Positions 1-51,329 of a stretch of 64,000 nt of DNA are shown here, piece after piece. The stretch's first letter is position 1, and each line of letters begins with the position of its first letter. Both the position numbers and the translations under genes were made by a program. The notes beneath the pieces are model-generated. The model ran no database searches, had not been told where the DNA came from, and saw nothing but the letters and a program-made list of their open reading frames with translations. Source of the stretch: Escherichia coli (lineage in GTDB: Bacteria; Pseudomonadota; Gammaproteobacteria; Enterobacterales; Enterobacteriaceae); NCBI RefSeq assembly GCF_016903815.1, contig NZ_CP069974.1; one strand, 5' to 3'.

Positions 1-7
1 CGCCGGT

Positions 8-934
8 GTGGCCTTCGGCAAGCAATTTCCCGAGCAGGGCCCGCTCACTGCTGACAGCTTCTCCGGTGGCGAGGCGACCGTCGTTCCGGCGCTGACGCGG
101 CTCGGGTTTCGCATCATTCGCATCGGCGAAGACTGGTCCGAAGAAGAGGTCCTGGCCACGGTCGAAGACTATTTCGACATGCTGCGTGCCGAGGCGGCTG
201 GGGAGCCGTACAACAAGTCCGAGCACAACCAGGCACTGCGCCAACTGCTGAACGGTCGCAGCAAGTCTTCAGTCGAGCTCAAGCACCAGAACATTAGCGC
301 CGTACTCGATGCCCTGGGCCTGCCCTATATCAACGGCTACAAGCCACGCGGCAACAGCCAACTGCTGCTGCGTAAATCCGTACACGCCTACGTTCTGGAA
401 CATCAGCAGACGGTCGGCGCTCTTGTCGATGCCCTGGAGGAGGTAAAACTTCCGGGTGACAAAACCTACCGAGCGGCTTTGGTAGAACCACCCGCCCGTG
501 AAGTGCTTGTGCGTACCCCGGCATCTCTACGGCAACGCCTACCGCGAAAGTTCGATTATGCCGCTCGCGATGAAGCCAACCGCAAGCTGGGCCGGGCAGG
601 GGAGCAGTGGGTGATTGGCTACGAACAGCAACGCCTGACCGAGCTCGGCCACCCAGAGCTTTTTCAGCGGCTGGATTGGGTGTCCGACACCCAGGGAGAC
701 GGTGCGGGGTTCGACATCCTGTCGTTCGAAGAGGACGCCCATGAGCGCTTCATCGAGGTGAAAACCACCAATGGCGGGGTAGGCTCGTCTTTCTTGGTCA
801 GCCACAACGAACTCGAATTCTCCAAGGAGGCGGGCGATCAATTCCATCTGTATCGCGTGTTCCAGTTTCGGGACGGTCCGCGCCTGTTCACGCTACCCGG
901 CGACCTCAGCCAACATGTGCATCTCAAGCCGACG
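8..934 (+). pseudogene. DUF3883-like domain protein, 3' end interrupted by IS26; 5' end probably outside window
   Basis: ORF 8-961 runs directly into the IS26 left inverted repeat at 935; C-terminal part has the FIEVKTT...SHNELEFS...YRVF pattern I associate with DUF3883; ORF opens on a non-ATG codon at the window edge. Confidence 0.45.
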
Positions 935-1754
935 GGCACTGTTGCAAATAGTCGGTGGTGATAAACTTATCATCCCCTTTTGCTGATGGAGCTGCACATG
1001 AACCCATTCAAAGGCCGGCATTTTCAGCGTGACATCATTCTGTGGGCCGTACGCTGGTACTGCAAATACGGCATCAGTTACCGTGAGCTGCAGGAGATGC
1101 TGGCTGAACGCGGAGTGAATGTCGATCACTCCACGATTTACCGCTGGGTTCAGCGTTATGCGCCTGAAATGGAAAAACGGCTGCGCTGGTACTGGCGTAA
1201 CCCTTCCGATCTTTGCCCGTGGCACATGGATGAAACCTACGTGAAGGTCAATGGCCGCTGGGCGTATCTGTACCGGGCCGTCGACAGCCGGGGCCGCACT
1301 GTCGATTTTTATCTCTCCTCCCGTCGTAACAGCAAAGCTGCATACCGGTTTCTGGGTAAAATCCTCAACAACGTGAAGAAGTGGCAGATCCCACGATTCA
1401 TCAACACGGATAAAGCGCCCGCCTATGGTCGCGCGCTTGCTCTGCTCAAACGCGAAGGCCGGTGCCCGTCTGACGTTGAACACCGACAGATTAAGTACCG
1501 GAACAACGTGATTGAATGCGATCATGGCAAACTGAAACGGATAATCAACGCCACGCTGGGATTTAAATCCATGAAGACGGCTTACGCCACCATCAAAGGT
1601 ATTGAGGTGATGCGTGCACTACGCAAAGGCCAGGCCTCAGCATTTTATTATGGTGATCCCCTGGGCGAAATGCGCCTGGTAAGCAGAGTTTTTGAAATGT
1701 AAGGCCTTTGAATAAGACAAAAGGCTGCCTCATCGCTAACTTTGCAACAGTGCC
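935..1754 (+). mobile_element. IS26 (IS6 family), complete 820 bp
   Basis: Terminal inverted repeats GGCACTGTTGCAAA at 935-948 and TTTGCAACAGTGCC at 1741-1754; internal 234-aa Tnp26 ORF. Confidence 0.95.
998..1702 (+). CDS. tnpA: IS26 transposase Tnp26
   Basis: Protein MNPFKGRHFQRDIILWAVRWYCKYGISYRELQEM... matches Tnp26 from memory; 234 aa from ATG at 998. Confidence 0.95.
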   Translation: MNPFKGRHFQRDIILWAVRWYCKYGISYRELQEMLAERGVNVDHSTIYRWVQRYAPEMEKRLRWYWRNPSDLCPWHMDETYVKVNGRWAYLYRAVDSRGRTVDFYLSSRRNSKAAYRFLGKILNNVKKWQIPRFINTDKAPAYGRALALLKREGRCPSDVEHRQIKYRNNVIECDHGKLKRIINATLGFKSMKTAYATIKGIEVMRALRKGQASAFYYGDPLGEMRLVSRVFEM

Positions 1755-4468
1755 CTTTTTTCTGCCTCATACGACGCACGGGAAACCAGCAGACCTGTGC
1801 CATAGCCTTTTGCCACATCCACATACAGTAAGTCACCGCGTTTTATCTGCGCATTGATTTCCCCTCCCAGTTCAGTAAAACCGGTTCCTTCTGCAGCAAA
1901 CGACTTCGCCTCTGTCAGCAGGTCCACCATGCTGAAGGCCAGGTTTTTACTTTCCAGCACAGGAAGGGCCAGATGAATGGCCTGCTGTGCCGGCGTGTGA
2001 AGCCCGGCTTTCTGCAGACTGATAGCGGTTTCCAGCAATGTCTCACCGGCACGCGCCTTTATCTGATCAGAAACCACCGTAAAGGAGGGATGGCGGGCAA
2101 GTTTTTCCGCAGTACGGGGTTCATCCAGCGAGGAATACAGCCGGACATCACGACCACTGCGGGCCAGACCGTTCAGGGTCGCGTTGTCCATCGCCATCTG
2201 TGTGACGGAGGCAAAAACCGTCGCACTGTCGCTGACGGAATGCCCGGGCGTTTCCACCCAGCCGTTCTCCAGCTTCAGTGCCGTGAATGGTGAATCAGCC
2301 ACAGGCAGGGTGGCCGGTTCAGCCCGCCCCGGCACAACAACCGTCATCGCATCTTCACTGACGGATGCCACCTGCAGGCGGTCACCGCCGGAGACGCGGA
2401 GTCCGGGAATTTTCCCTGTCACCCTCAGTCGCTCGCCGTCTGCCACCGGCATTTTTTCCGGCCGGAACAGCGACCAGCTGCTGTCCAGGGAGGAAATACG
2501 CACCACCTGCGTTTCGCCCTGCGCATCCCGCAGGTTCAGGCTGTGACTCTGCGCTGTCACCCGGTCTATCACATAGCGGTCATGACTGCGTGTCTCCGGG
2601 TTCCACTGCTCCATCACCATCCCCGGTCGGTACATATCCCGCAGATAACGGCTCCGGCTGTCCAGCCAGACCGGTGACAGTGCAGTCATGGTCACCTCAG
2701 GGTGTCCGAGCACGCCCTGCGTTTTCAGCTCACTGCGAATGGCCTCTGTCAGTATGGCCTGTTCCCGTACCCCGCTGACCTGTGCCACGCTCTCTTCTCC
2801 GGCTTTCACGCTGGCCGCAAAATCTCCGGCCAGCCGGGCATAGCGGACATTACGGTCCGGTTCACTGATGATGGTGGCCGGTCGCTGTTCTCCCCCCTGC
2901 CAGCGATATGTGTTCACCCCGGCATCCTTCATGGCCATCAGTGCACTGCCTGTACCGGTTCGCTGCCCGCTGTCGGTTATCAGGACCTGTACGTTATGAC
3001 GTGCGGCACCATCCAGCAGGGTTAACGTCTCTTTCAGGGAGAGTTTTTCGCCCTGGTCGACGATAACGGTACTGCCCGGCGGGAAGGCCATGCCTTCCAG
3101 CAACTGACGACGTCCGGTTATCAGTTCACCGGACAGCCGTTCATCCTGCTTCAGGTTCATCTGCGAGCGACGGTCAGCAGCGATAATCTGCACCTCCCGC
3201 CCCTGCTCCCGGGCCATCATGACCAGTTCAGCCACCCGCTCACGCTGCCCGGCTGCACCGCCCTGCCCGGACACAATGGCCAGCGACGGGCGATCCTGTG
3301 CCAGAACACTGACGGCATCGCTGTAACCGGCCGTCCGGGGGACACTTTTCTCCGGATGTACGGTCACCCGGTTCTGTTTCATGATGTCACGACTGAGTGC
3401 CCGGACTGACAGCTCATCGAGCACATGAATCCCGGACGTGAACAGCCCCTTCTCACGATCGAGGGGGATAAGCTGCTCACGGCTGATGGCCTCATCGATA
3501 CCGGCGCGTGCCCGTTCAATCACACCATTTTCCGGCGGCAGTATGCCGACCGTCCTGGCCAGCACGTCCGTATACGTGAACTGCACTTTTCGTTCACTTA
3601 ATCCGGCAATGGCCTGTGTCACCGCCTGCTGCACATCCGGCCCGTCCTGTGAAGCAGGCCCGGGCGCCTGCGTGCGGATCTCCGCACGCTGATCCGCCGC
3701 GTCACGATATGCCCGGATGTCGAACCCGGTTTCCTTCAGCGTCTGCATCCATTCAGCCATTCTGACTTCAGGATCGACGTGCTGTTTGGATTTACGCGTA
3801 TCCAGTGCCGCCACATCCCGGGATTTCAGCGAGGCGTCTTCACCGACGGCCTCCCGGATAGCCTGTGAGCGTCCGGAGAAGGCTTCCACCGGTACGCCCG
3901 GCATCTCCCACATACCGTGCTTACCGACCACTTCGGTTTCATAACCCAGCGCCTCAACGCGCTGACGTAACTCACTCTGATATATTTTCCCGAACGCAAT
4001 CCGGTTCGCGAGCACGTTCTCGGAAAATCCGGTTTTCCCCACTTTGTCACTGCTCAGTGTCTTCCATTCGCCGTTATGCTGCGTGACATTAGCCACCACC
4101 ACATGCGTGTGTAACTGTGGGTCCTGATCGCGACTGGTGTCATGGTTAAACAGTGCCATCACCAGATTACCGGTCAGCACCGTTTCTGACTGTCCGTCCG
4201 TCATCACCCGTGTGGAAGCCAGCGCCTCCACCTGACGGACAGCAAAATCCACAGCCTGGTTATGTGCATCAATAAGACGTTTATCCCCCCCGAGCATGGC
4301 CATCATGGAGACACTTTTGGGGGCGGAGAAGGTCAGGTCGTAGCCGGGACGATGCTTATTACTGCCATCCTGCATGCGGCTTAAATCCGCCCCGTCCGGC
4401 AGCCTGCCCTCCAGAAGACGGGTAAAAACATCCTTATCGACGCTGCCCTGCAGCCCAAGCTGTTCAGC
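1755..4468 (-). pseudogene. traI: traI relaxase/helicase fragment (about residues 36-947), truncated at both ends
   Basis: ORF 1736-4489 matches F TraI from ...[55 protein letters not shown] onward; 3' end cut by IS26, 5' end fused to a traD fragment. Confidence 0.85.
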
Positions 4469-4643
4469 CCCCTGAACGGAAAAAAGCACGGGTGTTCATG
4501 ACGTCAAACAGCGTGGCCGCCGCTTTCTCACCGTAGATATCTTCCAGCTGGGCATAGGACTGGATACCAAACACATAACAGCCACCGAACTTACGGGCTT
4601 CCGGCAGGATCTCCACCAGGTCCGGCAGTTTGTGTAACGTGGG
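4469..4643 (-). pseudogene. traD: traD internal fragment (coupling protein), deletion remnant
   Basis: Minus-strand translation [52 protein letters not shown] matches an internal TraD segment; flanked by traU and traI fragments. Confidence 0.7.
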
Positions 4644-4809
4644 TACCCTGGCTGACTTTGATACTGCCCAGCGAGAGCGGGAAAATACAGCTCCAGCAGA
4701 TATCCGTGATCGGGTTTACAAAACGCCCCTCACAGGCAGAATCCGCAGACGCCGCAGGGACATGACCGGCGAGAAGGAATAACATCAGCAGCCACAGTCT
4801 TCGCTTCAT
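4644..4809 (-). pseudogene. traU: traU 5' fragment (signal peptide plus first ~55 codons)
   Basis: [55 protein letters not shown] matches the TraU N-terminus, then the frame runs into traD-derived sequence. Confidence 0.75.
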
Positions 4810-5150
4810 TTTCTGCCCTCCTCTGCCGGAATAAATTCCACCTTCAGGAAGCGATCGCCGGGAACGGCGCTCACCCGTGCCGGGACCTGATCAATGCCGA
4901 GGCGCTGGCAGAGCACACCGTTCTGGTCAAAGTAAATACGGCTGTCCAGCGCTTTCTGCATCTCCGGGATACTGCCCTGCACGAGGATAATTTTGCTCTC
5001 CAGTGTGGGCGGCGTCTGGCGTTTCATCCAGGCCACCTGCGCCGGATCATCGCCATTGATGAAATACAGCGTCTGGTTAAAAGGAACATACTGCAGCGGA
5101 TTCATCACTTCACCCTGACGGGCAAACACCCGCCCTTCGTTATCCCGGAT
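4806..5150 (-). pseudogene. traW: traW 3' fragment (C-terminal ~100 codons), N-terminal part deleted
   Basis: IRDNEGRVFARQGEVMNPLQYVPFNQTLYFINGDDPAQVAWMKRQTPPTLESKIILVQGSIPEMQKALDSRIYFDQNGV... matches the TraW C-terminus; the upstream part of ORF 4806-5384 is out-of-frame traC sequence. Confidence 0.7.
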
Positions 5151-7467
5151 ACAGCTGGTTGTATTTTGCGAACTCCTTCGCACTCTGTTTGAGGATAATT
5201 TTGTAGGAGGAGTTACCCCATGCCGCACGGGCCGCACTGGAGGCCTTGTCAGAGTCAAAGTCGACGATGTTCTGTGTGATGGTGATATAAGCACCGGTAT
5301 GACGACGGGCGGTACGGTAACCTTTCTCAATAAACTCACCGACCTTGTAATTTTTGAAGTCCAGCAGACGCCAGCCTTCATCAATGACGTTCAGTTTCTT
5401 GAGGTTACGCGGCGTGCGGTACATCCTGTTCTCGATGTAGATAATCAGGGAGAACATCACCGCAACCAGCAGTGACGGACGGTCTTCCAGTCCGCCCAGC
5501 TCCAGCACCACCATTTTTGCGTCATCCCGCAGGGACGGCTCATCAGAGTTAAAATACTGACCGTAAGTGCCGTTGGCAGTGTACTGGTCAAGCAGCACAA
5601 TCATTTCGTCCAGACGGCTGCGGATAGTCGGTGACCCGGCATACTGCTCGCTGTCACTGGCGTTTTTCAGGAAATCCACCACGTCATCAATACGTGCCCT
5701 GTTCTCTTTGGCCAGCCAGGAGGCCCTGACCGCCTGCAGCAGCAGACCTTCATGCACTTCATCCAGGTTACCGTTGGGGCTGGCCATCACTGACAACTGG
5801 TCACGGACACGCTCCGCTGACTGGTCGATATCGGTGATATTCGCAAACGGGTTAAAACGCAGGGTTTCACCGTCCAGATATACGCCACCCATGTTCTCAC
5901 ACAGGGACTTGTAGCCATCCCCCATGTCGAACACCACGGCAAAGCCCCCGGAGTCCAGCACGCTGCGGATAAGGGGCTGTATCAGTCCGGTTTTACCGGC
6001 CCCGGAGGTGCCACAGACCGCCATGTTGTAGTTGGTGTTATTCATCCCCCGGAAGAAAATATCGATAAACGCCAGCTGGTTACGGTAGGTGGGTGCCAGC
6101 AGACCTGCCGGTGTCAGGGGGTTATCCGCCACTAACGGCATCAGGTTGGCAACATTAAAGCTCTCTGCGCGCTGAACCACACCGGCCTCTTTCAGCTGTT
6201 TAAACAGCCCTTTCCCGGCCATAAAGGGCAGGCAGGTCAGGAAATTGCGCATGTGGTTAAAGCGCGGTGAAATCAGCTCAAAACCGTTTTTACGGAAGCT
6301 GTTCAGGATGTCCTGCTCCACTTCCAGTGCCGTTTCATTATTGTCCTTGCAGAAGGCTGTGATGTTGAGGAAGTAGGACACGACAGAAGACTGACCGGAG
6401 CCCAGCCGCTGACGCAGTTCCCCCCACTCCTTCGCCTCTTTCTCCACGGACGGAAACCATTTGGCATAGGAGGTCTTCGACTTTTTCTCCAGGTCCATGT
6501 ACTTCAGGTTGGCTTCGCTGTGGGTTTTCACCTGGTCTTCCACCACCAGAGTCAGCGTCAGGATGAACGGACAGGAGATGGACAGTTCCGGGTTCAGCAG
6601 GTTGCTGTAGTTGTCGGCCATATTCCACAGGAAGGCGATTTCCGGGTTACGGGCCAGATGGAAATTCAGGATGCGGGCCGTGCTGTTCCTGCCGTTCTCA
6701 CGCAGGCCCAGCGTCAGGTAATCAGCCCGGACTTTCAGGTCAAAACTGTCCTCCACACACTGATAATTCAGATCAGAATACGGGTCCAGCTGACGTCTTT
6801 TCGGGTACAGGGAGTCCGGGTTATGATTAATCATCTCCCCGACAATATCGATAAAGGCCTGTGCATCCACCGTCTGTGTGGCGATACTGGCCCCCTGTAA
6901 CGACGCCCGGATGATTTTCACCAGGTTTTCCATTTCCAGAATGTCAGCCCGGCTTTTTTTCTTCGAGGGAGAACAGTACGAGAAGAATACCCGGTAATGG
7001 CGCAGGGTCAGGGGCAGATTCATCCCCTCCGGCAGCGGAAACTGTGTCGCTGCCGCGTTCATATAATAGGCACGGGTAATGGCGTTAAACCGTTCAGCCT
7101 GTTCACCGGACCAGGAGAACTCACGCAGCCCGTATTCAATTCTGTCACCAACAAGCTGGCTGGACTTCAGATGGATGCAGAACGGCACTCCGCGTGGCAG
7201 TTTGGTGCGCAGCATGTGGTCGAGCGCCTCCACAATGGACTCATTCGCCCCATTGATGGGAATGGCTTCCAGCATAAAGCCCATCGTGGTGTCATTCATG
7301 AACAGACCGGACTCCTGGTTGTAATCACGGTACGGCAGCAGACGGCTGAACTGCGGGAAGCTCATTTCGCCCAGAACTTCATTGGCCTTTGCGGATTCGT
7401 CAGGCAGTTTCAGTGCTGTGACGAGGGAGTTAACCGCCTGAGTGACGGCCTCAAGTGGGTTATTCAC
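5140..7467 (-). CDS. traC: TraC (VirB4-like pilus assembly ATPase), C-terminally truncated at 775 aa by deletion
   Basis: MNNPLEAVTQAVNSLVTALKLPDESAKANEVLGEMSF... matches F TraC; ORF stops at ...KYNQLYPG where the traW fragment begins; no room for trbI. Confidence 0.8.
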   Translation of the reverse strand: MNNPLEAVTQAVNSLVTALKLPDESAKANEVLGEMSFPQFSRLLPYRDYNQESGLFMNDTTMGFMLEAIPINGANESIVEALDHMLRTKLPRGVPFCIHLKSSQLVGDRIEYGLREFSWSGEQAERFNAITRAYYMNAAATQFPLPEGMNLPLTLRHYRVFFSYCSPSKKKSRADILEMENLVKIIRASLQGASIATQTVDAQAFIDIVGEMINHNPDSLYPKRRQLDPYSDLNYQCVEDSFDLKVRADYLTLGLRENGRNSTARILNFHLARNPEIAFLWNMADNYSNLLNPELSISCPFILTLTLVVEDQVKTHSEANLKYMDLEKKSKTSYAKWFPSVEKEAKEWGELRQRLGSGQSSVVSYFLNITAFCKDNNETALEVEQDILNSFRKNGFELISPRFNHMRNFLTCLPFMAGKGLFKQLKEAGVVQRAESFNVANLMPLVADNPLTPAGLLAPTYRNQLAFIDIFFRGMNNTNYNMAVCGTSGAGKTGLIQPLIRSVLDSGGFAVVFDMGDGYKSLCENMGGVYLDGETLRFNPFANITDIDQSAERVRDQLSVMASPNGNLDEVHEGLLLQAVRASWLAKENRARIDDVVDFLKNASDSEQYAGSPTIRSRLDEMIVLLDQYTANGTYGQYFNSDEPSLRDDAKMVVLELGGLEDRPSLLVAVMFSLIIYIENRMYRTPRNLKKLNVIDEGWRLLDFKNYKVGEFIEKGYRTARRHTGAYITITQNIVDFDSDKASSAARAAWGNSSYKIILKQSAKEFAKYNQLYPG

Positions 7468-7626
7468 ATGAATTCCTTAGTTGAAAAATAAAGCGAGAAA
7501 TGCGGTAGCCATGAAGGGAATACCTGTAATTAACGCGCCATTTCCCGGCGCATATACAAAGATTTCGGTTTTCTGAATATCAACTCATGTTCATCCGGAA
7601 TTAAATCAATATGTTCTGCGACTGAC

Positions 7627-7848
7627 TTATGCATAATGTTTTCTCTGCTTTTCCTGATACGCCTGACATTCAACGCACAACGTCACACCGGGAAATATTT
7701 TCCGCCGGGCTTCCGGAATAGGATTTCCGCATGCTTCACAGAGATAAACAGGAATACCATGAACATTTATTTTCTGGCGTATCCGGTTTATTCCTGTCAT
7801 GGTCAGTTGTTCTGTCACTGAATATGCTTCATCGGCTTCATCACTCAC
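7627..7848 (-). CDS. traR: TraR
   Basis: 73 aa MSDEADEAYSVTEQLTMTGINRIRQKINVHGIPVYLCEACGNPIPEARRKIF... matches F TraR. Confidence 0.85.
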   Translation of the reverse strand: MSDEADEAYSVTEQLTMTGINRIRQKINVHGIPVYLCEACGNPIPEARRKIFPGVTLCVECQAYQEKQRKHYA

Positions 7849-7982
7849 GGAATATTCCTCCCGACATGTTCTGACACGCTACCGCCCATCCCTTTTCACG
7901 CACAGGGCACTCGTTTTACAGGCAGATTTTGAATACAGAAAGCCCGCCGGCATTGCCGGCTGATATACAACTTCAGGGCCAG

Positions 7983-8498
7983 TTAATTAATACGTGGTTT
8001 TCCCCACGCAGACGGTTTAATAACAAAAAACACACTGGATGGCTGATGATAAACATCCTGATTATCAATATAAGGCGCTATCCATAATGCAGCCGTCTGC
8101 TCACCCGTTCTTAGCGGGCGGGGAGGTGTTACCGGCGCAACTGAACTGACCGGAACAATCGTTTTCACTTCCCGGGCAGCCGTAAACAACGGACGTGGTG
8201 CCAGCAGTTTCTGCTCCGGAAGTGCCGTCACCGCAGGTCTGCTGCCGGACGGAGGGGTCGCGGTGACGGTCTGCACCGGCATTGTCCGGAAGTTCCCTTC
8301 AGCCAGGCGCGGCAGTGATGCCGCAACCGGCTTTGCTTCTGAGGACTGCTCCAGTTCTTTGGCCTTCTCATTGGCCTGCTCCATCGTCATACAGGTATCG
8401 GATGTGGTGGCGTTACACTCAAATTCCGTACTGGTTCCGGCACAGCCGGAAAGTAATAACGTTCCCAGCAGAGGAATAAATAAAGAAATCTGTTTCAT
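7983..8498 (-). CDS. traV: TraV lipoprotein
   Basis: 171 aa, lipobox LLSGC, matches F TraV; position between traR and traP region. Confidence 0.8.
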   Translation of the reverse strand: MKQISLFIPLLGTLLLSGCAGTSTEFECNATTSDTCMTMEQANEKAKELEQSSEAKPVAASLPRLAEGNFRTMPVQTVTATPPSGSRPAVTALPEQKLLAPRPLFTAAREVKTIVPVSSVAPVTPPRPLRTGEQTAALWIAPYIDNQDVYHQPSSVFFVIKPSAWGKPRIN

Positions 8499-8857
8499 TA
8501 CCCTTCTCCTTTTTTATTACTCTCCACAACAGCAGAAATTAACTCTACTGTCAGATTTGTTTTTCCTGCACAGGGTTGTCCGGAGACTACTGTATTTCCC
8601 GGAGAAGAAAATAAGCTCATCGACATACCCTTCTTCATCACACCGACAGCTGCCATATTAAAATTGTGCGGCAATGATTCAGAACCGAATTCCTTCAGTG
8701 CAGGAAGTACGATTCTTGTGGTGCAGTTACTGAGAACAGCATTCATAAAATCATCTGATACGCTTTTATCCGGTACAGAGCGTGCAGTAATAATATTACG
8801 CATGTTCATTTTTATCTCCGTTGTTTCTGTTTGCCCTGTCATCAGGGAAATAAACAT
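8498..8857 (-). CDS. small ORF in the trbD/trbG position of the F tra operon
   Basis: Position between traP and traV as in F; identity of the product not verified. Confidence 0.35.
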   Translation of the reverse strand: MFISLMTGQTETTEIKMNMRNIITARSVPDKSVSDDFMNAVLSNCTTRIVLPALKEFGSESLPHNFNMAAVGVMKKGMSMSLFSSPGNTVVSGQPCAGKTNLTVELISAVVESNKKGEG

Positions 8858-9383
8858 GGCATTTCCTGATTTTTTCCGACAGAGAAGTATCTTCCGTATA
8901 AACTTCCTTCAGATGTTCATCTGCGGTTCCCACCCGGACACATTTCATTTTTCCGGGTCGCACCGGATATTTCCCGGTGATCGCTGCCAGCGAGACATAC
9001 ATCAGTGCCAGTGTTGCCCAGAATGCGGTGACCAGTTGCATCAGTGACCGGTCAGTCTCCCTGACATAATCTGCAGCATCAGCCGCGCGGTAATGGCAGA
9101 TATCCTGTATTTCTGATCTGCCTGAAGAATCAGAGGAAGAAAACCAGCATTCACTGACCGGGAACTGTCCGGCAGGTGCTGTTTGTCTTACGAAGTTAAT
9201 CTCCTTAACCAGTAATTTCCCCGGCGTGGTGTTGTCCTTCCATAAAACAAACAGAGCCATCAGGGCCATTGTGGCCAGCGGCCAGATAACCACAAACCTG
9301 ACGACCCACAGCAGCCAGCGAACGACAAACGCCACACGGAATGTCAGTGCATCACCCGCCATTTCCGCCCTCCTTGCCGGCAT
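8796..9383 (-). CDS. traP: TraP
   Basis: 195-aa hydrophobic protein in the traP position downstream of traB; length matches F TraP. Confidence 0.55.
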   Translation of the reverse strand: MPARRAEMAGDALTFRVAFVVRWLLWVVRFVVIWPLATMALMALFVLWKDNTTPGKLLVKEINFVRQTAPAGQFPVSECWFSSSDSSGRSEIQDICHYRAADAADYVRETDRSLMQLVTAFWATLALMYVSLAAITGKYPVRPGKMKCVRVGTADEHLKEVYTEDTSLSEKIRKCHVYFPDDRANRNNGDKNEHA

Positions 9384-10803
9384 CCCCGCCCTGCGGGTTC
9401 TTGTCTCCGGACATAAACTGCTGCGGATTCAGATTGCCCAGCTGCTTCAGCATCTGGTCGGTGTTAAAACCGTTCAGGTGGCTTTCTGCCGAGGGAGGAT
9501 TCGGCACAGGGCTTTCCGGGTTACCCTCTTCCGCTGTACTCTGTGACTGCTCCAGCGCCATTTCCTCCACGGTTTTCAGCTGGAAGCCGTCCTGGAACAC
9601 CACTGTCACTTCGTTGCCCGCACCAATCGGTATCACCGGGTGATACTGTTCGGCACGTTTGATGTAGTAGTCACTGAGCGTCTGTGCGGCTTTCGATGCG
9701 CCGCCACCGATACCCATTTTAAGGACATCGCCGGCCCCGTAAGCGGCTGTGGCACCCAGCCCGACAGCCGGCTGGGAGGCGCGCTCCATTCCCTGACCGA
9801 TACCGTCAACAAATCCCGCGCCCCATGCCCAGCCGAGGATTTTGCCGTTACGCATCACCACTTCGCCCTTGATACCGTTTTTACCCCGGAAGCTGACATG
9901 CCCCTTAATCGGCATATCAATGGTTTTGCCATTCTTCAGGCAGCTGATATTACGGGTGCGAACAATAGCACGTTCACTGGAGACATCCCCCCAGGCTTCC
10001 AGCCCCACAAAACATCCCGTTGCGTCATACGTCTTGCTGTTCGGCATTTCCACCAGACCGGTGATACGCAGCTGCATCGGCACCGTGGATTCATTACCGG
10101 TGACTGAGGCATTGGCATCCGCCCCTTCAATCAGCATGGCTTTCGCAAAACTTCCTGACGGAATGTACGGCAGCGATGGTCCCTGTTTTCCCTCATTACG
10201 GGTAAACACCTTACGCTGTATCCGGTTAGGCACCGGCACAGACTGGTACATCACCTGTGGTGGTGGCGTGACACCATTCCCGGGATAAAACGCCGTCGGC
10301 GGTGGAACAGCAACGCTGCCCTGCGGCGGGAAGGATACGGGGGTGTTTCCCGGCTGTGGTTCGCCTTCCGGCCCGGGCGGTGAGGCTGGCGTCTGCGGTA
10401 CAGGCTCACCGGTCGCCGTGACGGGATTAGCACCCAGGGCTTTTACCTGCTCTGCCAGGGCGGCATTGTCCTGTCCCAGTTTTTCAATACGACGCTGGTC
10501 ATCACCGCGCTGTTTGTTCAGGACATCCAGTTCACGACGGATTTCCTCATACTGCTTCTGCATCTGCGCTGCCGTCACCTGCATCTCTGTGGTGGCATGC
10601 TGACGCACCTTGTCATCAAAGGTCGTATCCACCACACCGGTCATATCCGGCACAGGCTCCTGTTCAGCCACGGTTTCCCCGTTACCGGACATGTCCACAT
10701 CAGACAGATACAGTGCCCCACCAATCGCGGAGGCTGTACCGACAACCACAATCCCCAGCCACAGGTACTGCTTGCGTTTCACAATGGTGTTGATACTGGC
10801 CAT
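9352..10803 (-). CDS. traB: TraB (VirB10-like)
   Basis: Pro-rich middle region and conserved C-terminal domain; matches F TraB. Confidence 0.85.
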   Translation of the reverse strand: MASINTIVKRKQYLWLGIVVVGTASAIGGALYLSDVDMSGNGETVAEQEPVPDMTGVVDTTFDDKVRQHATTEMQVTAAQMQKQYEEIRRELDVLNKQRGDDQRRIEKLGQDNAALAEQVKALGANPVTATGEPVPQTPASPPGPEGEPQPGNTPVSFPPQGSVAVPPPTAFYPGNGVTPPPQVMYQSVPVPNRIQRKVFTRNEGKQGPSLPYIPSGSFAKAMLIEGADANASVTGNESTVPMQLRITGLVEMPNSKTYDATGCFVGLEAWGDVSSERAIVRTRNISCLKNGKTIDMPIKGHVSFRGKNGIKGEVVMRNGKILGWAWGAGFVDGIGQGMERASQPAVGLGATAAYGAGDVLKMGIGGGASKAAQTLSDYYIKRAEQYHPVIPIGAGNEVTVVFQDGFQLKTVEEMALEQSQSTAEEGNPESPVPNPPSAESHLNGFNTDQMLKQLGNLNPQQFMSGDKNPQGGDAGKEGGNGG

Positions 10804-11531
10804 CAGTTGCCCTCCCCGTCACGGATGACATACACATCCATGCACGCACCTGCCAGTAACTGGCTGGCAGGCTGGCTGAACATCACGGCACGGGTTCCCG
10901 GCTGCCAGAAGTCACTTTCCCGGATATTCAGGGCAGACAGCGTTTTATTTTCCACGGCAAAGCGGACCATCTTCAGGTGATTCCCCGTCCATACGGCATC
11001 TGCCACTGAAGACAGCCCCGCCGGGGCCTGCAGGGTTTCCTTTGTCACAGGAACCTGATACCAGCCTGCAGGTAATTTTCCGCCACGGACAGCCTGGCTG
11101 ATGGTCACAAGCAGGGATTCGTAAGGCGTGGACGTTTCCCACGCACCGGCTTCTTCTCCGGTTCCGCGCAGGTCACTGACCAGCTGAATGGTACGCCCCG
11201 CGCCTTCACGGGGAACGGCCTGAATGGAAAGATTCAGACCACGTTCTGTTTCCAGAATGAACGTAAAGGGCTTTTTGTTGACGGTGGCAACCACCACACC
11301 GCCGGAGGCGGTCTGCTCATTATTGGTCAGGGCACCATCCAGACTGTTCACGGCGATAATCCGGTCACCGGGAACGGTAAACAGATTCGGGCTGGTATTG
11401 CTGATGGCAATACTGGCCTGACCACCGTTCACCATTGGCACCACGGTGGGGGACAGCGTACCGTTTGCGGCCATCACGCTGCAGGAAAAAAACAGGCTGC
11501 CGAATATTATTGCCGTATTATTTTTTCTCAT
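10803..11531 (-). CDS. traK: TraK (secretin-like)
   Basis: 242 aa with signal peptide; matches F TraK; operon position. Confidence 0.85.
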
Positions 11532-12084
11532 CGTCTGTTTCCCCGAAATTATCCAGCCAGGTCACCCCGTTTTCCCGCTTCAGAATAAGGATGTAATGTT
11601 TGATATCAGTGAAAGGTTTTGAATCACCAATCCAGGTTTTAAGCACACCACGAATTTCCACACGGCCATACTGAGGCCAGACACGAACACTGGTCTGGAA
11701 AAAGGCTGAGTTCACGTTATCGTTTTTAATACGCTTCGCTTCTTCAGCCAGAATAACTTTCATCTGGTTCTGTGCGCCCGGGCGGATATATTTCAGAAGC
11801 GCCTGATGTGAGGCATCGACGGTTTCTGATGAAACATTCAGACGGAGGGCAATAAATGACAGCGCCATCTGCTGTAAATAAGAGGCGTCGGCACTGTTCT
11901 GTGACACGGCAAAGGGGGCATTAAATGCCATTGGCGTCACGGCAGTGCGTTGCTCATTCTGAAGACGGTAGTTATTCACCCCCTGAATGACGTTAACAGA
12001 GAGGCTGAGAACAATAAGCACTGACATAAATATAAAGGCGATGGCCATTACACGACTGGTACTTAAACGGGCACCGTGTTCCAT
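11518..12084 (-). CDS. traE: TraE
   Basis: 188 aa with N-terminal TM segment; matches F TraE. Confidence 0.85.
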
Positions 12085-12105: not shown

Positions 12106-12417
12106 CTATTTAACCCACTGCCGGAAACACGAATCGGGAACATTATGAAAAATACCGCGCAGCAGGGCTGTTGGCATATACCAGTAAATCAGGTCTCGTA
12201 ACCAGGAACTGCCCCGCCCTTTTTTCAGTTTTTTAATCCCGAAATAAACCAGAACCGCTGCACCAATACCGAACAGATATTTTGATGTTGTGATACCCCA
12301 GCCAATACAGATTGCGGCGGGGATCAGTTCATCCAGTGGCAGGCCAAACCAGCGGCTCTGGTTGGTCAGTGTTTCCGGGAAACGATATTTCTTAAGTTTA
12401 TTCTCGTCTCCCGACAT
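12106..12417 (-). CDS. traL: TraL
   Basis: Small membrane protein downstream of traA; matches F TraL. Confidence 0.8.
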
Positions 12418-12421: not shown

Positions 12422-12784
12422 TTATTTCAGGCCAACGACGGCCATACCCACAGCAATAAATACAGAGATGATGGCAAAACCGGCCAGGAACTTGACGTTT
12501 TTGGTCATCATGTACATGACCGCACCGACCAGAACTTCAGCCAGAACAACCCATTTAACAACACTGGAGTCCTTACCGAAGGTCGCCTTAACCGTGGTGT
12601 TACCGCTTGCCATCAGGTCCTGGCCCTGTGCTGCCATTGCCAGTTGCGGGAAGAACATCATCAGAACAGCAGCAGGGATCACAGCGCGAGCCAGGCGAAG
12701 CATATTCAGACGAGTGAATTTAGAAAAAAACGATTTCTTTTTGACGGGCGCAGAAGCACCCTGAACACTTAAAAAGGCGTCCAT
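12422..12784 (-). CDS. traA: TraA propilin (F-pilin)
   Basis: ...[48 protein letters not shown]...[55 protein letters not shown] matches F propilin. Confidence 0.9.
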
Positions 12785-12817: not shown

Positions 12818-13045
12818 CTAAAGTTCTTTAAATGTTGACTCGTTCTCTTCGATCACCTCCCTGAATATTTCTTCATTATAGAAATCAGGAAACCGTTTCA
12901 GATGATCTCTGAGACGGATCTGAACCTCTATAGTTTTACTTCTACCGCTACGATCTTTGGCCCGAATAAGTCGGTTATTTGTATCTTCATCGAGATACAC
13001 TGAGACTGTTCTGCTTATCCCGCCTCTCGCGTTACGCCTCCTCAC
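12818..13045 (-). CDS. traY: TraY (ribbon-helix-helix oriT/PY binding protein)
   Basis: 75 aa basic protein between traJ and traA; resembles R100-type TraY. Confidence 0.75.
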   Translation of the reverse strand: MRRRNARGGISRTVSVYLDEDTNNRLIRAKDRSGRSKTIEVQIRLRDHLKRFPDFYNEEIFREVIEENESTFKEL

Positions 13046-13132: not shown

Positions 13133-13810
13133 TTACATTTTTTTAACACCCATATATTCACTCAAAACATTTAATATTTCGTACATTACACCTGTCTTAA
13201 TACATTTATTCCTGAACAAATCGAAGGAACCCAATCTTTTATTGATATCCGCATTAATCTTTTTAATCCTTTTTTTAGAAGCCACTTCTGTGATTTTTAA
13301 TTCTTTAGCTATATTTATATGTTTATACCCTAATGCATAGAAACAAAAAACAACCAATGATTTTGCTGTCATATTCGATATAACAGACTGTACATAGCTA
13401 TCACGATGATAATAATTTTCTTTTTCCACACGAAAGAATGGATAGTCAGGAAATATATTAATTTGCCATAGAACAACAGATTCTTCATTATAAAATGAAA
13501 CATTTTCCATCCTTATTTGATAGATTTCTCCATGAAAATTAAAACGACGACAAAATGCGGAACCATGCCCAAGAGACTGGCATTCAAGCTCAAGTGATGA
13601 AAGAAAAATTTCAACCTGCAGACGTACATAACTTTCACCAGAGAAGGGTTTATCTTCTTTGGAAAAGAGTTCAATAAAGGCCCCATTGGCATAAAGGATT
13701 TTCCTTTTTTTGTTACGGACACAAACAGGAACAGGAGAATTCCTGTAGATATTTTGAACGTTAAGAATGTATTTATTTACAGATTGACTGTTAAGTGGCC
13801 TTTCTCTCAT
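13133..13810 (-). CDS. traJ: TraJ transfer activator (variable allele)
   Basis: 225-aa AT-rich ORF between traM and traY; C-terminal HTH-like region; TraJ alleles are highly divergent so the call rests mainly on position. Confidence 0.65.
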
Positions 13811-13885
13811 CGGCGATTTTTAATATCAAGTTTTAACGTGGCATTAACCACATAATTAATATAACCTTTATGCGGTTAATTGTCA
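13800..13885 (+). ncRNA. finP: putative FinP antisense RNA region (antisense to traJ leader)
   Basis: Placed by F-plasmid organisation, opposite the traJ RBS and first codons; no structural verification. Confidence 0.25.
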
Positions 13886-13943: not shown

Positions 13944-14327
13944 TTAACCCTCATCATTTTCTGGAAAGAACCTCTCCATCTCAGATGACACCTTCTCCCT
14001 GATATCTTCGACCATATTCGCATATTCAAACTTTGGATTTCCGGAGACATGAGGACTGAGAGACTCAATACCCAAAATTTTCGCTACTGATGATTGTGTT
14101 TTTACAACGCATTCAAGAAGCAATTTATTAAACTCAGTCTGATTAAATGCAGACTCTTTACGCTCCATCTGAGTCTCATATACACGAAGCCCTAATTCGA
14201 GAAGCATAGTGGATATGCTTGAGAAACTTACATCTGTACTTTTAGCTCCTTCTGCACGTCTTCTTTCCACAATTTTATTTATTTTATAGACAATTTCGTC
14301 ACTGACATAAGCCTGCACTTTCGCCAT
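13944..14327 (-). CDS. traM: TraM (oriT-binding relaxosome protein)
   Basis: 127 aa MAKVQAYVSDEIVYKINKIVERRRAEGAKSTDVSFSSISTMLLELGLRVYE... matches F-family TraM. Confidence 0.9.
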   Translation of the reverse strand: MAKVQAYVSDEIVYKINKIVERRRAEGAKSTDVSFSSISTMLLELGLRVYETQMERKESAFNQTEFNKLLLECVVKTQSSVAKILGIESLSPHVSGNPKFEYANMVEDIREKVSSEMERFFPENDEG

Positions 14328-14329
14328 AT

Positions 14330-14700
14330 GTATACCTCTTTATTTTCTTATCGCATCAAATTTATTTCACATATAAAAAAAAGACAATTCATCGATGAAT
14401 CGAATCGTGACGCAAGTTACGAAAATTACGATTCATGCAGCAAATCACATCACGAATTGAATCTAGAGTCAATTCGCTTTAACTCGTTGTTTTATTATTA
14501 CTGATTCATCTATGAGTTGTGTTAAATTCATTGGTGAATCATATGCGATTCACCAATGAATCCTTTTTATAATGTAAAATAAATTAAAATACATTATTTA
14601 AAACATAAGTTAATGATTCAAGTAGCAAATCAGCAAAAACTTGTTTTTGCGTAGTGTGTGGTGCTTTTGGTGGTGAGAACCACCAACCTGTTGAGCCTTT
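14330..14700. other. oriT region with predicted nic site near 14660/14661 and TraM-binding inverted repeats
   Basis: GCGTAGTGTGT/GGTGCTTTTGGTGGTGAGAACCACC resembles the F nic region; AT-rich IHF-like tracts; inverted repeats TTCATTGGTGAATC...GATTCACCAATGAATC around 14530-14570. Confidence 0.6.
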
Positions 14701-16810: not shown

Positions 16811-17392
16811 AGCCCCCATCATCTGTTGAGTTTCGGGAGCCGCGGTTTTGACGTTTTGCGGGGACCTGCCTTTTGTTCCCTCCGGTATTCACCATCACCT
16901 TTTTGAGAACCTTCGCCGCAAGGGGCATCACTGCCACGGACGGAAACGACTGTCCGGGGGCAGACCGCAAAAGTTTTTGCCTGCTTCTGGGCAAAAAGTT
17001 TTGCGGGATGTGCATTTCACCCCTGGACTGGCGGAGACGGTTGTGGCTGTCTTTGCCCCCGGCGACAGGGGCTTAAACAGGTGAATGGCACCGGACAGAA
17101 CAACGGGCAGGGACCCGCCGCAACGACGTGAAGCGCGGTTTGCGAAACGGCGTTGCCCCTTACATCCCGGCGGTCTTTTGCCGGGATGCCAGGAGCGCAG
17201 GCCACGGCGCGACAGAGGCGGCGCGACCGGAACGGTCGCTGCAAGCCAGGGGTTTTCACGCATCGGACCGTAGCGACAGCCCGAAACCGCGCCAGCGGGT
17301 TCGGCGGAGACTGGCAGGTGCGCCAGCAGCTGCCTGTCGGAGTCGGGCCTGACGACCGGATGCCGCCAGGCAGCCGGGAGCCGAAGGTGCGC
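16811..17392. repeat. GC-rich structured repeat copy 1 (candidate Frpo/ssi-type ssDNA promoter), abutting intron copy 1
   Basis: ~0.57-kb sequence repeated at 28596-29177 (near-identical) and 34285-34848 (diverged in the first ~250 nt); sits ~27 nt upstream of the orf95 start on the minus strand; multiple hairpins, e.g. GCGACCG-GAA-CGGTCGC. Confidence 0.45.
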
Positions 17393-19776
17393 GTGCGACA
17401 GGAAGTCGCTTAACGTATTGTTTTACATTGATAAAACCAGCTATCCCATTAGCTGTAGCCTACCGGGACAGGCGTTGCCGGCAACGGCGGGGTCTGAAGC
17501 TCCCGGGACAACGAGAGCCGGGCGTCAGCCCGGGTAATGCCCCGTGAGGGGCTTTACCTTGCTGCAAGCATCATGCGGCAGGAGAGCAAGGCTGGTCAGA
17601 AGGGTTAACACATGTGAACTGTTGATAAACACCGTTATCGGCAACAGGCCAAAGATGCTGACAGGCCTGAACCAAAAGGTACGGGGTCCGGTTGCTACCT
17701 CGCGCACAGGGAGCACATGGGCGCAGAGACCCCCGGTGAAGAGACAGAACCCGCCCTGACCCTCTGTATGTTAAGCGGAACCTGGTAAACCCGTATCGCT
17801 GCCTCACAGGCAGGTGAACCGCAAGGAACACTGTTAGCGGTGCGGGCATAGGAGGACGGAAAAAGCGAATGCCCGGCTGTAATAACCGGGATACGGGGCA
17901 GGTTCCCCGACGCGAAAGCGGGCAGACTTCCGTCTGGTCTTTAATTGCATGAAAAGCTGTAAAGCAGTCAAAAGGATATCAGCGAGATGAATACACACAT
18001 CAGTGTGTCCACGATACCCCACCCGACAGGCTGGCACACCATAAACTGGAAAGCATGCCATGCCCGGGTGCGAAAGCTACAGTTACGGATTGCAAAGGCA
18101 ACCCGACAGCAACAATGGCGGCAGGTCAGAGAACTACAGCGCATCCTCACCCGCTCATTCTCCGGCAAAGCCGTGGCTGTCAGGCGTGTAACTGAAAATA
18201 CCGGTAAAAGGACACCCGGTATTGACGGAAAAATATGGCACACACCGAAGGAGAAATGGGAAGGAATATGCAGCCTGAATCTGTGTGGTTACAGGCCACA
18301 GCCACTACGGCGAATACATATCCCAAAATCAAACGGCAAAACGCGACCGCTGGGCATACCCACAATGAGGGACCGGGCCATGCAGGCACTGTGGCTGCTG
18401 GCTCTGGAACCCGTATCCGAGACCACTGCTGACCATAACAGCTATGGTTTCAGACCAATGCGCAGCACGCATGACGCCATTGAGTCCATTTTTCTGCGGA
18501 TGAGCCAGAAAGTATCGCCCAAATGGATACTGGAGGGCGATATTAAAGGGTGCTTCGATAACATCAGCCATGACTGGCTGCTTTCCCATATTCCGATGGA
18601 CAGGAGACTGCTTAAAAAATGGTTGAAAGCAGGTTACATGGAAAGAGGCGTGTTTAACCATACGAACAGCGGGACACCGCAGGGAGGCATCATATCCCCT
18701 GTTCTCGCCAACATGGCTCTGGACGGACTGGAGAAGGAACTGATGCAAACGTTCAGGAAAAGTGGTTATCACAGTGCAAAGCACCAGGTGAATTATGTGA
18801 GATATGCTGATGATTTCATCTGTTCAGGCAGCTCCCGTGAATTGCTGGAAAATGAGGTCAGACCACTGATTGCAGCTTTCATGCGCGAACGAGGGCTGGA
18901 ACTGTCGGAAGAAAAAACAGCGATCACACATATAGATAAAGGCTTCGACTTTTTAGGGCAGAACGTCAGGAAGTACAACGGTAAAATGCTGATTAAACCG
19001 TCGAAGAAAAACCTGAAGAACTTCCTCTGTAAAGTCAGAGAAATAATTAAACGCAATCCGACGCTCCCGGCATGGAAACTGATAGGCCAGCTAAACCCGG
19101 TGATCCGGGGATGGGCTACCTATCACCGACACGTCGTGGCGAAAGAAACATTTAATTATGTCGACACCCAAATCTGGCGAGCTATATGGCGATGGTGTGT
19201 AAGACGGCATCCCCGGAAAGGATTGCGGTGGATCGCCGGACGATACTTCTCCTTTGAAGGCAGGCGCTGGATCTTTAAAGCCATAACCCCGGAAGGGAAA
19301 ATTCTGACACTCTTCCGGGCAATGGAAACACCGATAAAGCGCCATATAAAAATCAAAGGCGAAGCAACACCATACACCCCCGGAATGGAAATCTACTTTG
19401 AACGTCGTCTGGATCTAATCTGGAAAGGCAAATCAAAGAAGATGAAGACAGTAGTTCAACTCTGGAAGAGGCAGGGGAAACACTGTCCGCAGTGCGGACA
19501 ACTCATAACCAACCAGACCGGATGGAATATACATCACCGGATCAGGAAAGTTATGGGCGGCAGTGACGAACTGACCAATCTCGAGTTGTTACATCCGAAC
19601 TGCCACCGACAGTTACACAGCAGGGAAGCCGGTGCTCACCGAAAGCACTTATAAAGGCTTGAGCGGAGTGCGGGGAAACTCGCACGCTCCGTTCTTAGGG
19701 GGCGGCGGCGCAGCAATGTGCCGCTGCTACCCGACCCGGCAGACAGGACAACACTGCAGTAGTCAGAATCAGAGCA
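17393..19776 (+). mobile_element. group II intron copy 1 (RT-maturase-HNH IEP); 3' boundary approximate
   Basis: Starts GTGCGACAGGAAGTCGC; 555-aa IEP in domain IV; domain V-like hairpin GAGCGGAGTGCGGGGAAACTCGCACGCTCCGTTC at 19661-19694; identity with copies 2 and 3 extends to ~19776, true 3' splice site probably within 19735-19776. Confidence 0.75.
17987..19654 (+). CDS. group II intron-encoded reverse transcriptase/maturase with HNH endonuclease domain
   Basis: RT motifs (GTPQGGIISP, YVRYADDF), maturase region, C-terminal CPQCG...HH...HPNCHRQLH. Confidence 0.9.
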   Translation: MNTHISVSTIPHPTGWHTINWKACHARVRKLQLRIAKATRQQQWRQVRELQRILTRSFSGKAVAVRRVTENTGKRTPGIDGKIWHTPKEKWEGICSLNLCGYRPQPLRRIHIPKSNGKTRPLGIPTMRDRAMQALWLLALEPVSETTADHNSYGFRPMRSTHDAIESIFLRMSQKVSPKWILEGDIKGCFDNISHDWLLSHIPMDRRLLKKWLKAGYMERGVFNHTNSGTPQGGIISPVLANMALDGLEKELMQTFRKSGYHSAKHQVNYVRYADDFICSGSSRELLENEVRPLIAAFMRERGLELSEEKTAITHIDKGFDFLGQNVRKYNGKMLIKPSKKNLKNFLCKVREIIKRNPTLPAWKLIGQLNPVIRGWATYHRHVVAKETFNYVDTQIWRAIWRWCVRRHPRKGLRWIAGRYFSFEGRRWIFKAITPEGKILTLFRAMETPIKRHIKIKGEATPYTPGMEIYFERRLDLIWKGKSKKMKTVVQLWKRQGKHCPQCGQLITNQTGWNIHHRIRKVMGGSDELTNLELLHPNCHRQLHSREAGAHRKHL

Positions 19777-20313: not shown

Positions 20314-21165
20314 TTAAACACGAGGCATATAGGTCTGATTCCGATATTCAATTGGAGTCAGACCTTTTAATTTCAGGCTAATTCTTCTGCTGTTGTAGTA
20401 TTCAATATATTCCGTAACAGCATCCTTCAGTTCGCTTATATTACTGAACTCATCAAGATAAAAACACTCCGACTTTAAGGTTCCAAAGAAACACTCCACC
20501 ACAGCATTATCCAGACAATTGCCTTTTCTGGACATGCTTTGTTTAATACCATGTTCTTTAAGGATATTTTGATATCTTCTCATACGATACTGCCATCCCT
20601 GGTCAGAGTGCAGAACAGGATGCTCGTGAGGATTAAGCTTTTTGAATGCCTGATCGAGCATATTCTCAACCATGTTCATCACTGGTCTTTCCGAAAGGCT
20701 GTAAGAAATAACTTCGTTGTTGAAGAGATCTATTACTGGAGACAAATACAGCTTGCGCCCATTGACTGCAAATTCAGTAACATCGGTAACCCACTTCTCG
20801 TTTGGCCGCGTAGCCTTGAAATCTCTTTGGAGAACATTAGGGGCGGTTTGCCCTACCTCTCCTCTGTAAGAGCGGTATCGCTTGACCTTAATCGCTGCTT
20901 TAAGTGAGAGGGTTCCCATCAGGCGCTGAACAGCTTTATGGTTAATCTGTTTCCCTTCTCGATGAAGAGACAGCGTTACCCTACGGTATCCGTATCGGCC
21001 TCTATTCTCGTGATAAATCTCACTAATACGCTTTTTAACGTCCGCATACTTGTCAGGCTTGCTGAGAGCCTTTAGATGATAATAAAACGTACTGCGCGGT
21101 ATCTCCGCAGCCCTGAGAAGCTCATCAAGAGGATAAAACTGCCTTAGCTCGTTGAGTACTTTCAC
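20314..21165 (-). CDS. insK: IS150 OrfB (InsK) transposase catalytic part
   Basis: 283 aa with DDE integrase-like region; overlaps orfA as in IS3-family frameshift arrangement. Confidence 0.85.
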
Positions 21166-21683: not shown

Positions 21684-21842
21684 ATTAGGGGCTATTCCAT
21701 TTCATCGTCCAACAAAATGGGTGCAGTACAAGCGCCGGGCACATCATAGCCCATATACCTGCACGCTGACCACACTCACTTTCCCTGAAAATAATCCGCT
21801 CATTCAGACCGTTCACGGGAAATCCGTGTGATTGTTGCCGCA

Positions 21843-22993: not shown

Positions 22994-23047
22994 CACGGTA
23001 TCTCCCTTGCTGCCGCCCCGTCTCCGGCGGGGCGGTGTGGTTGTTTA

Positions 23048-25006: not shown

Positions 25007-25071
25007 AGTTAGTACCTCCCAAAACGGTAATAATGATTGTCTGCCGGACGTGTCCCCGTCCGGCACCTCTC

Positions 25072-25868
<797 letters not shown>

Positions 25869-49955: not shown

Positions 49956-49974
49956 ATGCGGTTAACCTTTCTGA

Positions 49975-51310: not shown

Positions 51311-51329
51311 GTAATTGATAACTCTAATG

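Follow-up and report, generated by a model that had tools for sequence, protein, structure and literature searches.

The window, the whole stretch of 64,000 nucleotides analysed here, belongs to contig NZ_CP069974.1 of Escherichia coli (assembly GCF_016903815.1). Its positions 1755–7467 contain remnants of the transfer (tra) genes of an F-like plasmid, bordered on the left by a copy of the insertion sequence (IS) IS26. The tra genes of the window are on the minus strand. A megablast comparison of positions 1–12000 with PLSDB gives matches to thousands of F-like plasmids, a handful of them collinear over 1755–7467. Three references were used for alignment: pEc184_IncF (NZ_CP072859.1, locus L002), F (NC_002483, L004), and R100 (NC_002134, L009). 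Where the first one and the window share sequence, they are 100% identical, and traC-trbI-traW-traU, traD, traI, and traX are intact in this plasmid. Breakpoints were taken from blastn against these plasmids, the blocks were then converted to gene coordinates, and deletion sizes are the alignment offsets relative to each reference. Positions 1755–7467 turn out to be four collinear blocks, whose nucleotide identity is 95–99% with F and R100 and 100% with pEc184_IncF. The fragments and their open reading frames (ORFs) are the following.

1755–4479, minus strand: traI remnant (traI nt 101–2825, codons 34–942 of 1756), a pseudogene in the Prokaryotic Genome Annotation Pipeline (PGAP) annotation of identical DNA
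1736–4489, minus strand: ORF holding the traI remnant, 917 amino acids (aa)
4474–4645, minus strand: internal traD fragment, 172 bp (nt 1280–1451, codons 427–484 of 732)
4644–4809, minus strand: traU 5' end (nt 1–166, codons 1–55, signal peptide included)
4591–4809, minus strand: traU ORF, 72 aa (TraU 1–55 plus 17 out-of-frame residues)
4806–5151, minus strand: traW 3' fragment (nt 288–633, codons 96–210 and stop codon)
4806–5384, minus strand: ORF over the traW fragment, 192 aa
5145–7467, minus strand: truncated traC, aligned part (nt 1–2323, codons 1–774 of 875)
5140–7467, minus strand: traC ORF, 775 aa (TraC 1–774 plus one foreign residue)

The fragments of traU and traW form a single block of 508 bp (4644–5151), and the traW fragment has no start codon of its own. 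For the 917 aa ORF, the start codon is a GTG, five codons before the traI remnant, and the end is inside IS26. In identical DNA, these fragments are annotated as pseudogenes by PGAP/RefSeq.

The joints between blocks correspond to three deletions.

J1, 5145–5151: traC nt 2323 joined to traW nt 288, with a 7-bp microhomology, CCGGATA; deletion D1, the 3' end of traC, the whole of trbI, and the 5' end of traW (978 bp in pEc184_IncF, R100, and F)
J2, 4644–4645: traU nt 166 joined to traD nt 1280, with a 2-bp microhomology, TA; deletion D2, traU nt 167 to traD nt 1279, trbC through traT (14,350 bp in R100, 13,542 bp in F)
J3, 4474–4479: traD nt 1451 joined to traI nt 101, with a microhomology of GA (5/6 bases over GAACGG); deletion D3, the traD 3' end and the first 100 nt of traI (853 bp in pEc184_IncF, 871 bp in R100, 1,524 bp in F)

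A D2 size relative to pEc184_IncF is not applicable, this plasmid has its own IS1-associated gap. F has, in addition, a vapBC-like insert that separates traD from traI, and its D3 figure is therefore larger. The J1 joint contains the sequence AACCAGCTGTATCCGGGATAACGAAGG. No IS ends were found at J1, J2, or J3, which together with the microhomologies points to illegitimate recombination instead of IS-mediated deletion.

With 0/2/0/2/1 as the frames of the fragments, traC enters the traW fragment out of frame and none of the joints produces an in-frame fusion; the traD fragment is out of frame with both of its neighbours. An earlier sequence-only reading of this DNA had proposed at least three deletions, and three are now mapped, with sizes set by alignment to F and R100. 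It had also described a traC which stops at 775 aa where an out-of-frame traW C-terminal fragment begins: The ORF at 5140–7467, the blastn blocks, and the frames all agree. The fusion of traU to traD to traI that it described is right as a physical order and wrong as a translational fusion, and traI does restart internally, at codon 34/35 and not at about residue 36. The tblastn matches of TraW, which begin at residue 62, and of TraD, which begin at residue 393, extend past the joints. We consider them low-identity extension artefacts, since the nucleotide alignments fix the breakpoints.

The missing genes were sought by tblastn against the whole window, with all R100 Tra proteins plus TraN, TraS, and TrbG of F as queries. 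There is no match in the 64 kb to trbI, trbC, traN, trbE, traF, trbA, traQ, trbB, trbJ, trbF, traH, traG, traS, traT, traX, or finO. The window has no further or second tra segment either, as judged by blastn with the F, R100-like, and sibling regions. The absence of trbI and of everything from trbC through traT, which the earlier reading had reported, is thus borne out for the window. Altogether, about twenty transfer genes have been removed or broken by the three deletions and IS26.

Several components required for self-transfer are affected. Instead of a full-length TraI relaxase/helicase, only codons 34–942 are left. In Pfam, the TrwC profile is matched by this remnant from position 32 only (1–31 are unmatched), and the remnant lacks both the AAA_30/AAA_19 helicase domain and TraI_C. 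The 33 deleted N-terminal residues hold the tyrosine cluster 16, 17, 23, 24 (YY...YY); in F TraI, Tyr16 acts as the catalytic nucleophile. All that is left of the coupling protein TraD is the out-of-frame internal piece of 172 bp. The ATPase TraC, of VirB4 type, is incomplete: Its ORF stops after residue 774/875 and the last 101 C-terminal residues are lost. The P-loop_TraG match in Pfam ends at residue 763 in intact and truncated TraC alike. As for pilus assembly and mating-pair formation, traW and traU are fragments, while trbC, traN, traF, traQ, traH, and traG have no match in the window and are also absent from the complete plasmid of strain 222, a sibling described below. The roles of the missing Tra proteins are established knowledge of the F system. 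Lacking the relaxase active site and helicase, TraD, full TraC, TraW, TraU, TrbC, TraN, TraF, TraQ, TraH, and TraG, the plasmid should be incapable of DNA processing, coupling, and pilus or pore assembly. Its predicted inability to conjugate by itself, already proposed in the sequence-only reading, is well supported by this gene content.

The left boundary of the region is formed by IS26, which cuts traI as the earlier reading had stated.

935–1754, plus strand: IS26 variant IS26-v1, 820 bp, with 14-bp terminal inverted repeats GGCACTGTTGCAAA
1755–1762, strand not applicable: 8-bp IS26 target sequence CTTTTTTC in traI, with a second copy beside distal traI in siblings
1–961, plus strand: 3' part of a gene with a DUF3883 (NO VEIN) domain, last gene of the aac(3)-IId module, with its final 27 bases in IS26

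The window contains one copy of IS26. Its transposase gene, tnp26, is at 998–1702; the protein carries G184N in Tnp26, and there are three nucleotide differences from canonical IS26. This variant has been named IS26-v1 (PMC9412624). In the relatives described below, canonical IS26 and IS26-v1 occur on one plasmid, and the copies which flank the insertion in traI are of the v1 type.

All three joints are found at 100% identity in five complete plasmids.

NZ_CP020496.1: strain 103, Boston urine isolate, IS26-v1 at the same traI site
NZ_CP020519.1: strain 222, Boston urine isolate, IS26-v1 at the same traI site
NZ_CP103763.1: pMB9880_1, Houston blood isolate, IS26-v1 at the same traI site
NZ_CP173527.1: strain 98210, IS26-v1 at the same traI site
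NZ_CP024863.1: AR_0015 unitig_1, CDC AR Bank, no IS26 in traI

In a collection of 15 billion proteins, the 72 aa ORF specific to J2 is present on 52 contigs and the truncated 775 aa TraC specific to J1 on 53. The size of this scar lineage is about 50–90 public assemblies. No plasmid with only one or two of the three joints was found in PLSDB with junction-spanning queries, so the order among the three deletions cannot be derived. Their order relative to IS26 is clearer. In AR_0015, in draft or Logan contigs (L012, L014, and L021), and in 11 similar places, the three joints are followed by an uninterrupted 1726 aa traI which lacks its N-terminal end (traI-deltaN), and then by traX; finO appears past this uninterrupted traI-deltaN-traX in the complete AR_0015 record only. 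Since these relatives have the three deletions without IS26, the deletions are ancestral to the lineage and the IS26 events came later. Five other contigs (L015–L018 and L020) have IS26 at the equivalent of window position 4055, in the opposite orientation and accompanied by intI1-dfrA17-aadA5-sul1, and L019 has it at the equivalent of 1921, beside blaTEM-1. The L019 boundary looks like an extra 166-bp adjacent deletion and may derive from the IS26 copy at 1755. The IS26 insertions in the traI remnant are therefore at two positions, 1755 and 4055, and possibly at a third.

The DNA found to the left of IS26 is not the same everywhere: Strains 103 and 222 have aac(3)-IId/AAA' there, pMB9880_1 has blaTEM-1, and the window has the DUF3883 gene. 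aac(3)-IId is present in each of the four siblings with a full annotation; blaCTX-M-15, blaOXA-1, and tet(B) are additionally found in the two whose annotation covers the resistance regions.

This bears on the fate of distal traI, traX, and finO. In the window itself, only the right-hand copy of CTTTTTTC is seen, while siblings have the duplication on both sides. In strain 222, an IS26-v1-ISVsa5'-aac(3)-IId-AAA'-IS26-v1 segment is inside traI, flanked by a direct 8-bp duplication of CTTTTTTC, and distal traI, traX, and finO are found beyond this IS26-bounded segment. In pMB9880_1, distal traI ends in CTTTTTTC beside IS26-v1, followed by the full aac(3)-IId module up to the DUF3883 gene and by IS26; about 17 kb further on comes blaTEM-1-IS26-v1-CTTTTTTC-traI'. 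The DUF3883 part of the window is 100% identical to pMB9880_1 48926–50000 and 99.8% identical to the AR_0015 plasmid, and window positions 1–1075 are 100% identical to the DUF3883-IS26 end in pMB9880_1. The exact DUF3883-IS26-traI' junction of the window was not found in 72,556 PLSDB plasmids or in 5,426 complete E. coli genomes.

Of the relatives with IS26 at this site, three have a full annotation, and all three keep distal traI, traX, and finO past the IS26-bounded resistance segment, so the absence of these genes from the present replicon is not established. The earlier claim that traX and finO are absent holds for the 64-kb window, not for the replicon. Most economically, the window would start within an IS26-bounded aac(3)-IId module in traI, with distal traI-traX-finO a few kb to the left, and the IS26 boundary is probably an IS26-bounded interruption of traI, not a terminal truncation. 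An IS26-mediated terminal deletion of about 15 kb relative to AR_0015, which would include the IncFII replicon, is the alternative. The window alone cannot decide between them; the siblings favour the insertion.

The genes upstream of traC present a very different situation, as shown by the following features.

7627–7848, minus strand: traR, intact
7983–8498, minus strand: traV, intact
8498–8809, minus strand: trbD, intact
8796–9362, minus strand: traP, intact
9352–10803, minus strand: traB, intact
10803–11531, minus strand: traK, intact
11518–12084, minus strand: traE, intact
12106–12417, minus strand: traL, intact
12422–12784, minus strand: traA, intact
12818–13045, minus strand: traY, intact
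13133–13810, minus strand: traJ, annotated as a PAS-domain protein, a diverged allele
13721–13853, minus strand: traJ 5' untranslated region/FinP region (Rfam traJ_5, 41.2 bits, E 7.5e-5, under the gathering score)
13944–14327, minus strand: traM, intact
14328–14700, strand not applicable: oriT region, 100% identical to pEc184_IncF

All twelve genes (traM, traJ, traY, traA, traL, traE, traK, traB, traP, trbD, traV, and traR) are full length, have no internal stops, and are identical to those of pEc184_IncF. The ten from traR to traY are RefSeq coding sequences in identical DNA, and most of these ten are 83–99% identical to F. The core envelope genes traA, traL, traE, traK, traB, and traV are thus complete. 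The sequence-only reading was right in describing the upstream pilus and pore genes as intact, but this does not imply pili: The intact proximal pilus genes are no proof of them, because TraQ, TraF, TraH, TraG, TrbC, TraW, and TraU are either absent or damaged. At the Rfam gathering threshold there is no FinP or traJ element, traJ_5 appears only in a permissive search. This match below the threshold is consistent with a diverged traJ/finP allele, not with a loss.

The oriT was also reported as intact, and it is. The R100-type 22-nt nic-region motif TTTGCGTAGTGTGTGGTGCTTT is on the plus strand at 14646–14667, with a single occurrence where 0 are expected by chance. The motif is identical to that of R100; F differs at two bases (GG for AGT-type positions), and this two-base difference between F and R100 sets TraI specificity. 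At a coverage of at least 80%, this oriT allele is found in 674 PLSDB plasmids.

We propose that the region is the decayed distal part of a tra operon of the R100/F type (MPF_F, MOBF), carried by a multireplicon IncF plasmid with multidrug resistance. From an ancestral operon that was complete, three internal segments, of 978 bp, about 14.35 kb, and 853 bp, would have been lost by microhomology-mediated illegitimate recombination. The resulting form would still have had traI-deltaN, traX, and finO in one piece. Later, IS26-v1 would have inserted into the traI remnant at codon 942, producing the 8-bp duplication CTTTTTTC, and IS26-bounded resistance DNA would have gathered at this site: The aac(3)-IId module, and more in some relatives. 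The predicted outcome is a plasmid without an active relaxase/helicase, a coupling protein, or a complete type IV secretion or pilus apparatus, which has kept oriT, traM and traY (accessory genes of the relaxosome), and the activator traJ. Functionally, it would be an oriT-only "hitcher", moved only if a co-resident F-like plasmid supplies TraI of R100 specificity, TraD, and the transfer apparatus. Such mobilisation in trans by a helper with R100-type TraI specificity appears plausible, because oriT, traM, and traY are intact, the oriT allele is widespread in PLSDB, and traS and traT are lost. The loss of these two genes would remove entry exclusion. We consider this account as a whole, with decay by three microhomology deletions followed by IS26-v1 and an oriT-only plasmid unable to transfer itself, to be very probable.

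Some points weigh against it. Because of IncF incompatibility, a helper and this plasmid may coexist stably only to a limited extent. The visible part of the replicon is no more than 64 kb and genes outside it are not directly excludable, although the complete sibling argues against them. Finally, the three deletions are not orderable among themselves and may be one single event. The fact that they are never found apart, and that the fragments of 172 bp and 508 bp have kept their original order and orientation, has led us to consider a more specific proposal. The three IS-free deletions would come from one multi-jump event of replication template switching, and the oriT-traM-traJ-traY block would be under selection for hitch-hiking on incoming R100-type IncF plasmids, for which the host would be a good recipient now that traS/traT exclusion is gone. 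We think that this combination is rather unlikely.

A more serious competitor is a pure dead end: The oriT would never be used, vertical inheritance along with the host clone would be the plasmid's only way of spreading, and the proximal tra genes would still be there just because deletion has not yet reached them. Epidemic IncF plasmids with truncated tra regions are described as fixed in clones and vertically inherited (PMC10147871; bioRxiv 10.1101/2021.08.17.456450), the scar lineage is as small as estimated above, and decay continues, with IS26 at 4055 in some relatives and the extra 166-bp loss in L019. On the other hand, oriT, traM, traY, and traJ are 100% conserved relative to plasmids with far more complete tra regions, the 674 plasmids which share the oriT allele are possible cognate helpers, and it has been argued that the conjugative-type oriTs kept in decayed plasmids allow mobilisation in trans (PMC10123127). 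We regard the dead end as possible, and less probable than not. A transfer system which is still functional, with the missing genes in cis beyond the window, has far less in its favour. About half of a plasmid of roughly 120 kb is visible, and the MOB-suite typing in PLSDB calls siblings "conjugative". Nevertheless, outside the part equivalent to the window, the complete strain 222 plasmid contains resistance, replication, and maintenance genes and, of the tra region, distal traI', traX, and finO only. The first 50 kb of pMB9880_1 give the same picture (50,001–63,503 and 123,041–128,773 were left out). The earlier reading would be in trouble if the missing tra genes were present elsewhere on the same replicon; the rest of the strain 222 plasmid has no other tra genes, so this does not happen in that relative. 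We therefore find it very improbable that tra is still functional. That the joints are assembly artefacts, from collapsed or chimeric contigs, is hardly credible at all: The same joints are shared by five complete plasmids, which come from different laboratories, and by about 50 further contigs, independent Logan assemblies among them.

The order oriT-traM-traJ-traY-traA-traL-traE-traK-traB-traP-trbD-traV-traR-traC is that of the R100/F tra operons. Unlike R100, the region is short of 978 bp, 14,350 bp, and 871 bp, and has IS26 at traI codon 942. The traJ, traY, and traM alleles, as well as the TraM/TraY-binding part of oriT, differ from both R100 and F. Decayed conjugative plasmids (pdCONJ) have been described in the plasmid group PTU-FE, derived by deletion and with their conjugative-type oriTs kept (Coluzzi et al. 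2022, PMC9185392; Ares-Arroyo et al. 2022, PMC10123127). The window plasmid resembles them: It is a large IncF plasmid, rich in transposable elements, with several mating-pair formation genes in an incomplete system, a conjugative ancestor, and a conjugative-type oriT. In the terms used for pdCONJ (PMC10123127), traA, traL, traE, traK, traB, and traV are intact and the rest is missing, and kinship is given by the 100% match to pEc184_IncF and the mapped deletion joints. The difference is that the relaxase is also inactivated here, so the mobility of the plasmid would be like that of an oriT-only (pOriT) element, not like that of a mobilisable plasmid which bears a relaxase.

Truncated transfer modules are a hallmark of the epidemic IncF plasmids of sequence types ST131 and ST410 (PMC10147871), and five other tra-defective IncF plasmids with CTX-M-15 were non-conjugative by mating (bioRxiv 10.1101/2021.08.17.456450). 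In the ST131 H30Rx plasmids (pOV24, pM70, and others), traC is also truncated, traW and traU are lost (they are fragments in the window), and tra is broken by IS26/blaTEM-1 units. Their breakpoints lie at other sites and are bounded by IS26, whereas in the window IS26 forms the fourth boundary only and the three internal joints are IS-free, with microhomology. In the literature searched, we found no paper which cites the sibling accession numbers and nothing specific on the combination of ST410, traI, and IS26. The scar is already public and annotated, and it is of a well described kind. Its value is practical, and the general picture of conjugation and of plasmid evolution stays as it was. 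The resistance lineage would be locked to vertical inheritance or helper-dependent transfer, and it offers a clean stepwise record of tra decay, with three deletions first and independent IS26 hits after them.

Annotation is a pitfall in this lineage, with a "conjugative" label and a traI called intact although the relaxase site and the coupling protein are lost, as are most of the secretion genes. The MOB-suite typing of NZ_CP103763.1 and NZ_CP020519.1 in PLSDB gives "conjugative", with relaxase MOBF and MPF_F, evidently because of matches to the remnants. In NZ_CP024863.1 (L008), at 21160–26340, PGAP calls the N-terminally deleted traI an intact coding sequence, WP_074168427.1, of 1726 aa, which starts inside the traD fragment and lacks TraI residues 1–33.

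A few other plasmids and genomes have breakpoints in the same genes. The unrelated R100-like plasmid pXZ (NC_019095.1, L011) has its own deletion of about 0.9 kb in traC/traW, at 4564–4572. Its traC breakpoint is at the same GTATCCGGAC motif as J1 and its partner site in traW is a different one, 64 bp away, which suggests that this motif is a small microhomology hot spot. In GCA_000948905.1 (JXWI01000001.1, L022), a 973-bp trbI'-traW-traU' fragment (9195–10167, corresponding to 17210–18182 of the R100 locus) is part of a P2-like prophage, where its neighbours are the terminase gene and tail gene I. The prophage junction recurs in an independent Logan assembly. The traU breakpoint of this fragment is at most 1 bp from J2, probably an ascertainment effect of protein clustering. 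The reference pEc184_IncF shows an independent decay at 8023–9944, with IS1 between trbC and traD, and traN through traT missing.

The leading region, downstream of oriT, contains several group II introns. Three copies with identical Rfam scores (D1–D4 and domain V/VI) are at 17437–19735, 29222–31520, and 34893–37191, all on the plus strand, and a fourth, different match is at about 25869–25989 on the minus strand. In the relatives, ltrA is annotated three or four times, together with IS150.

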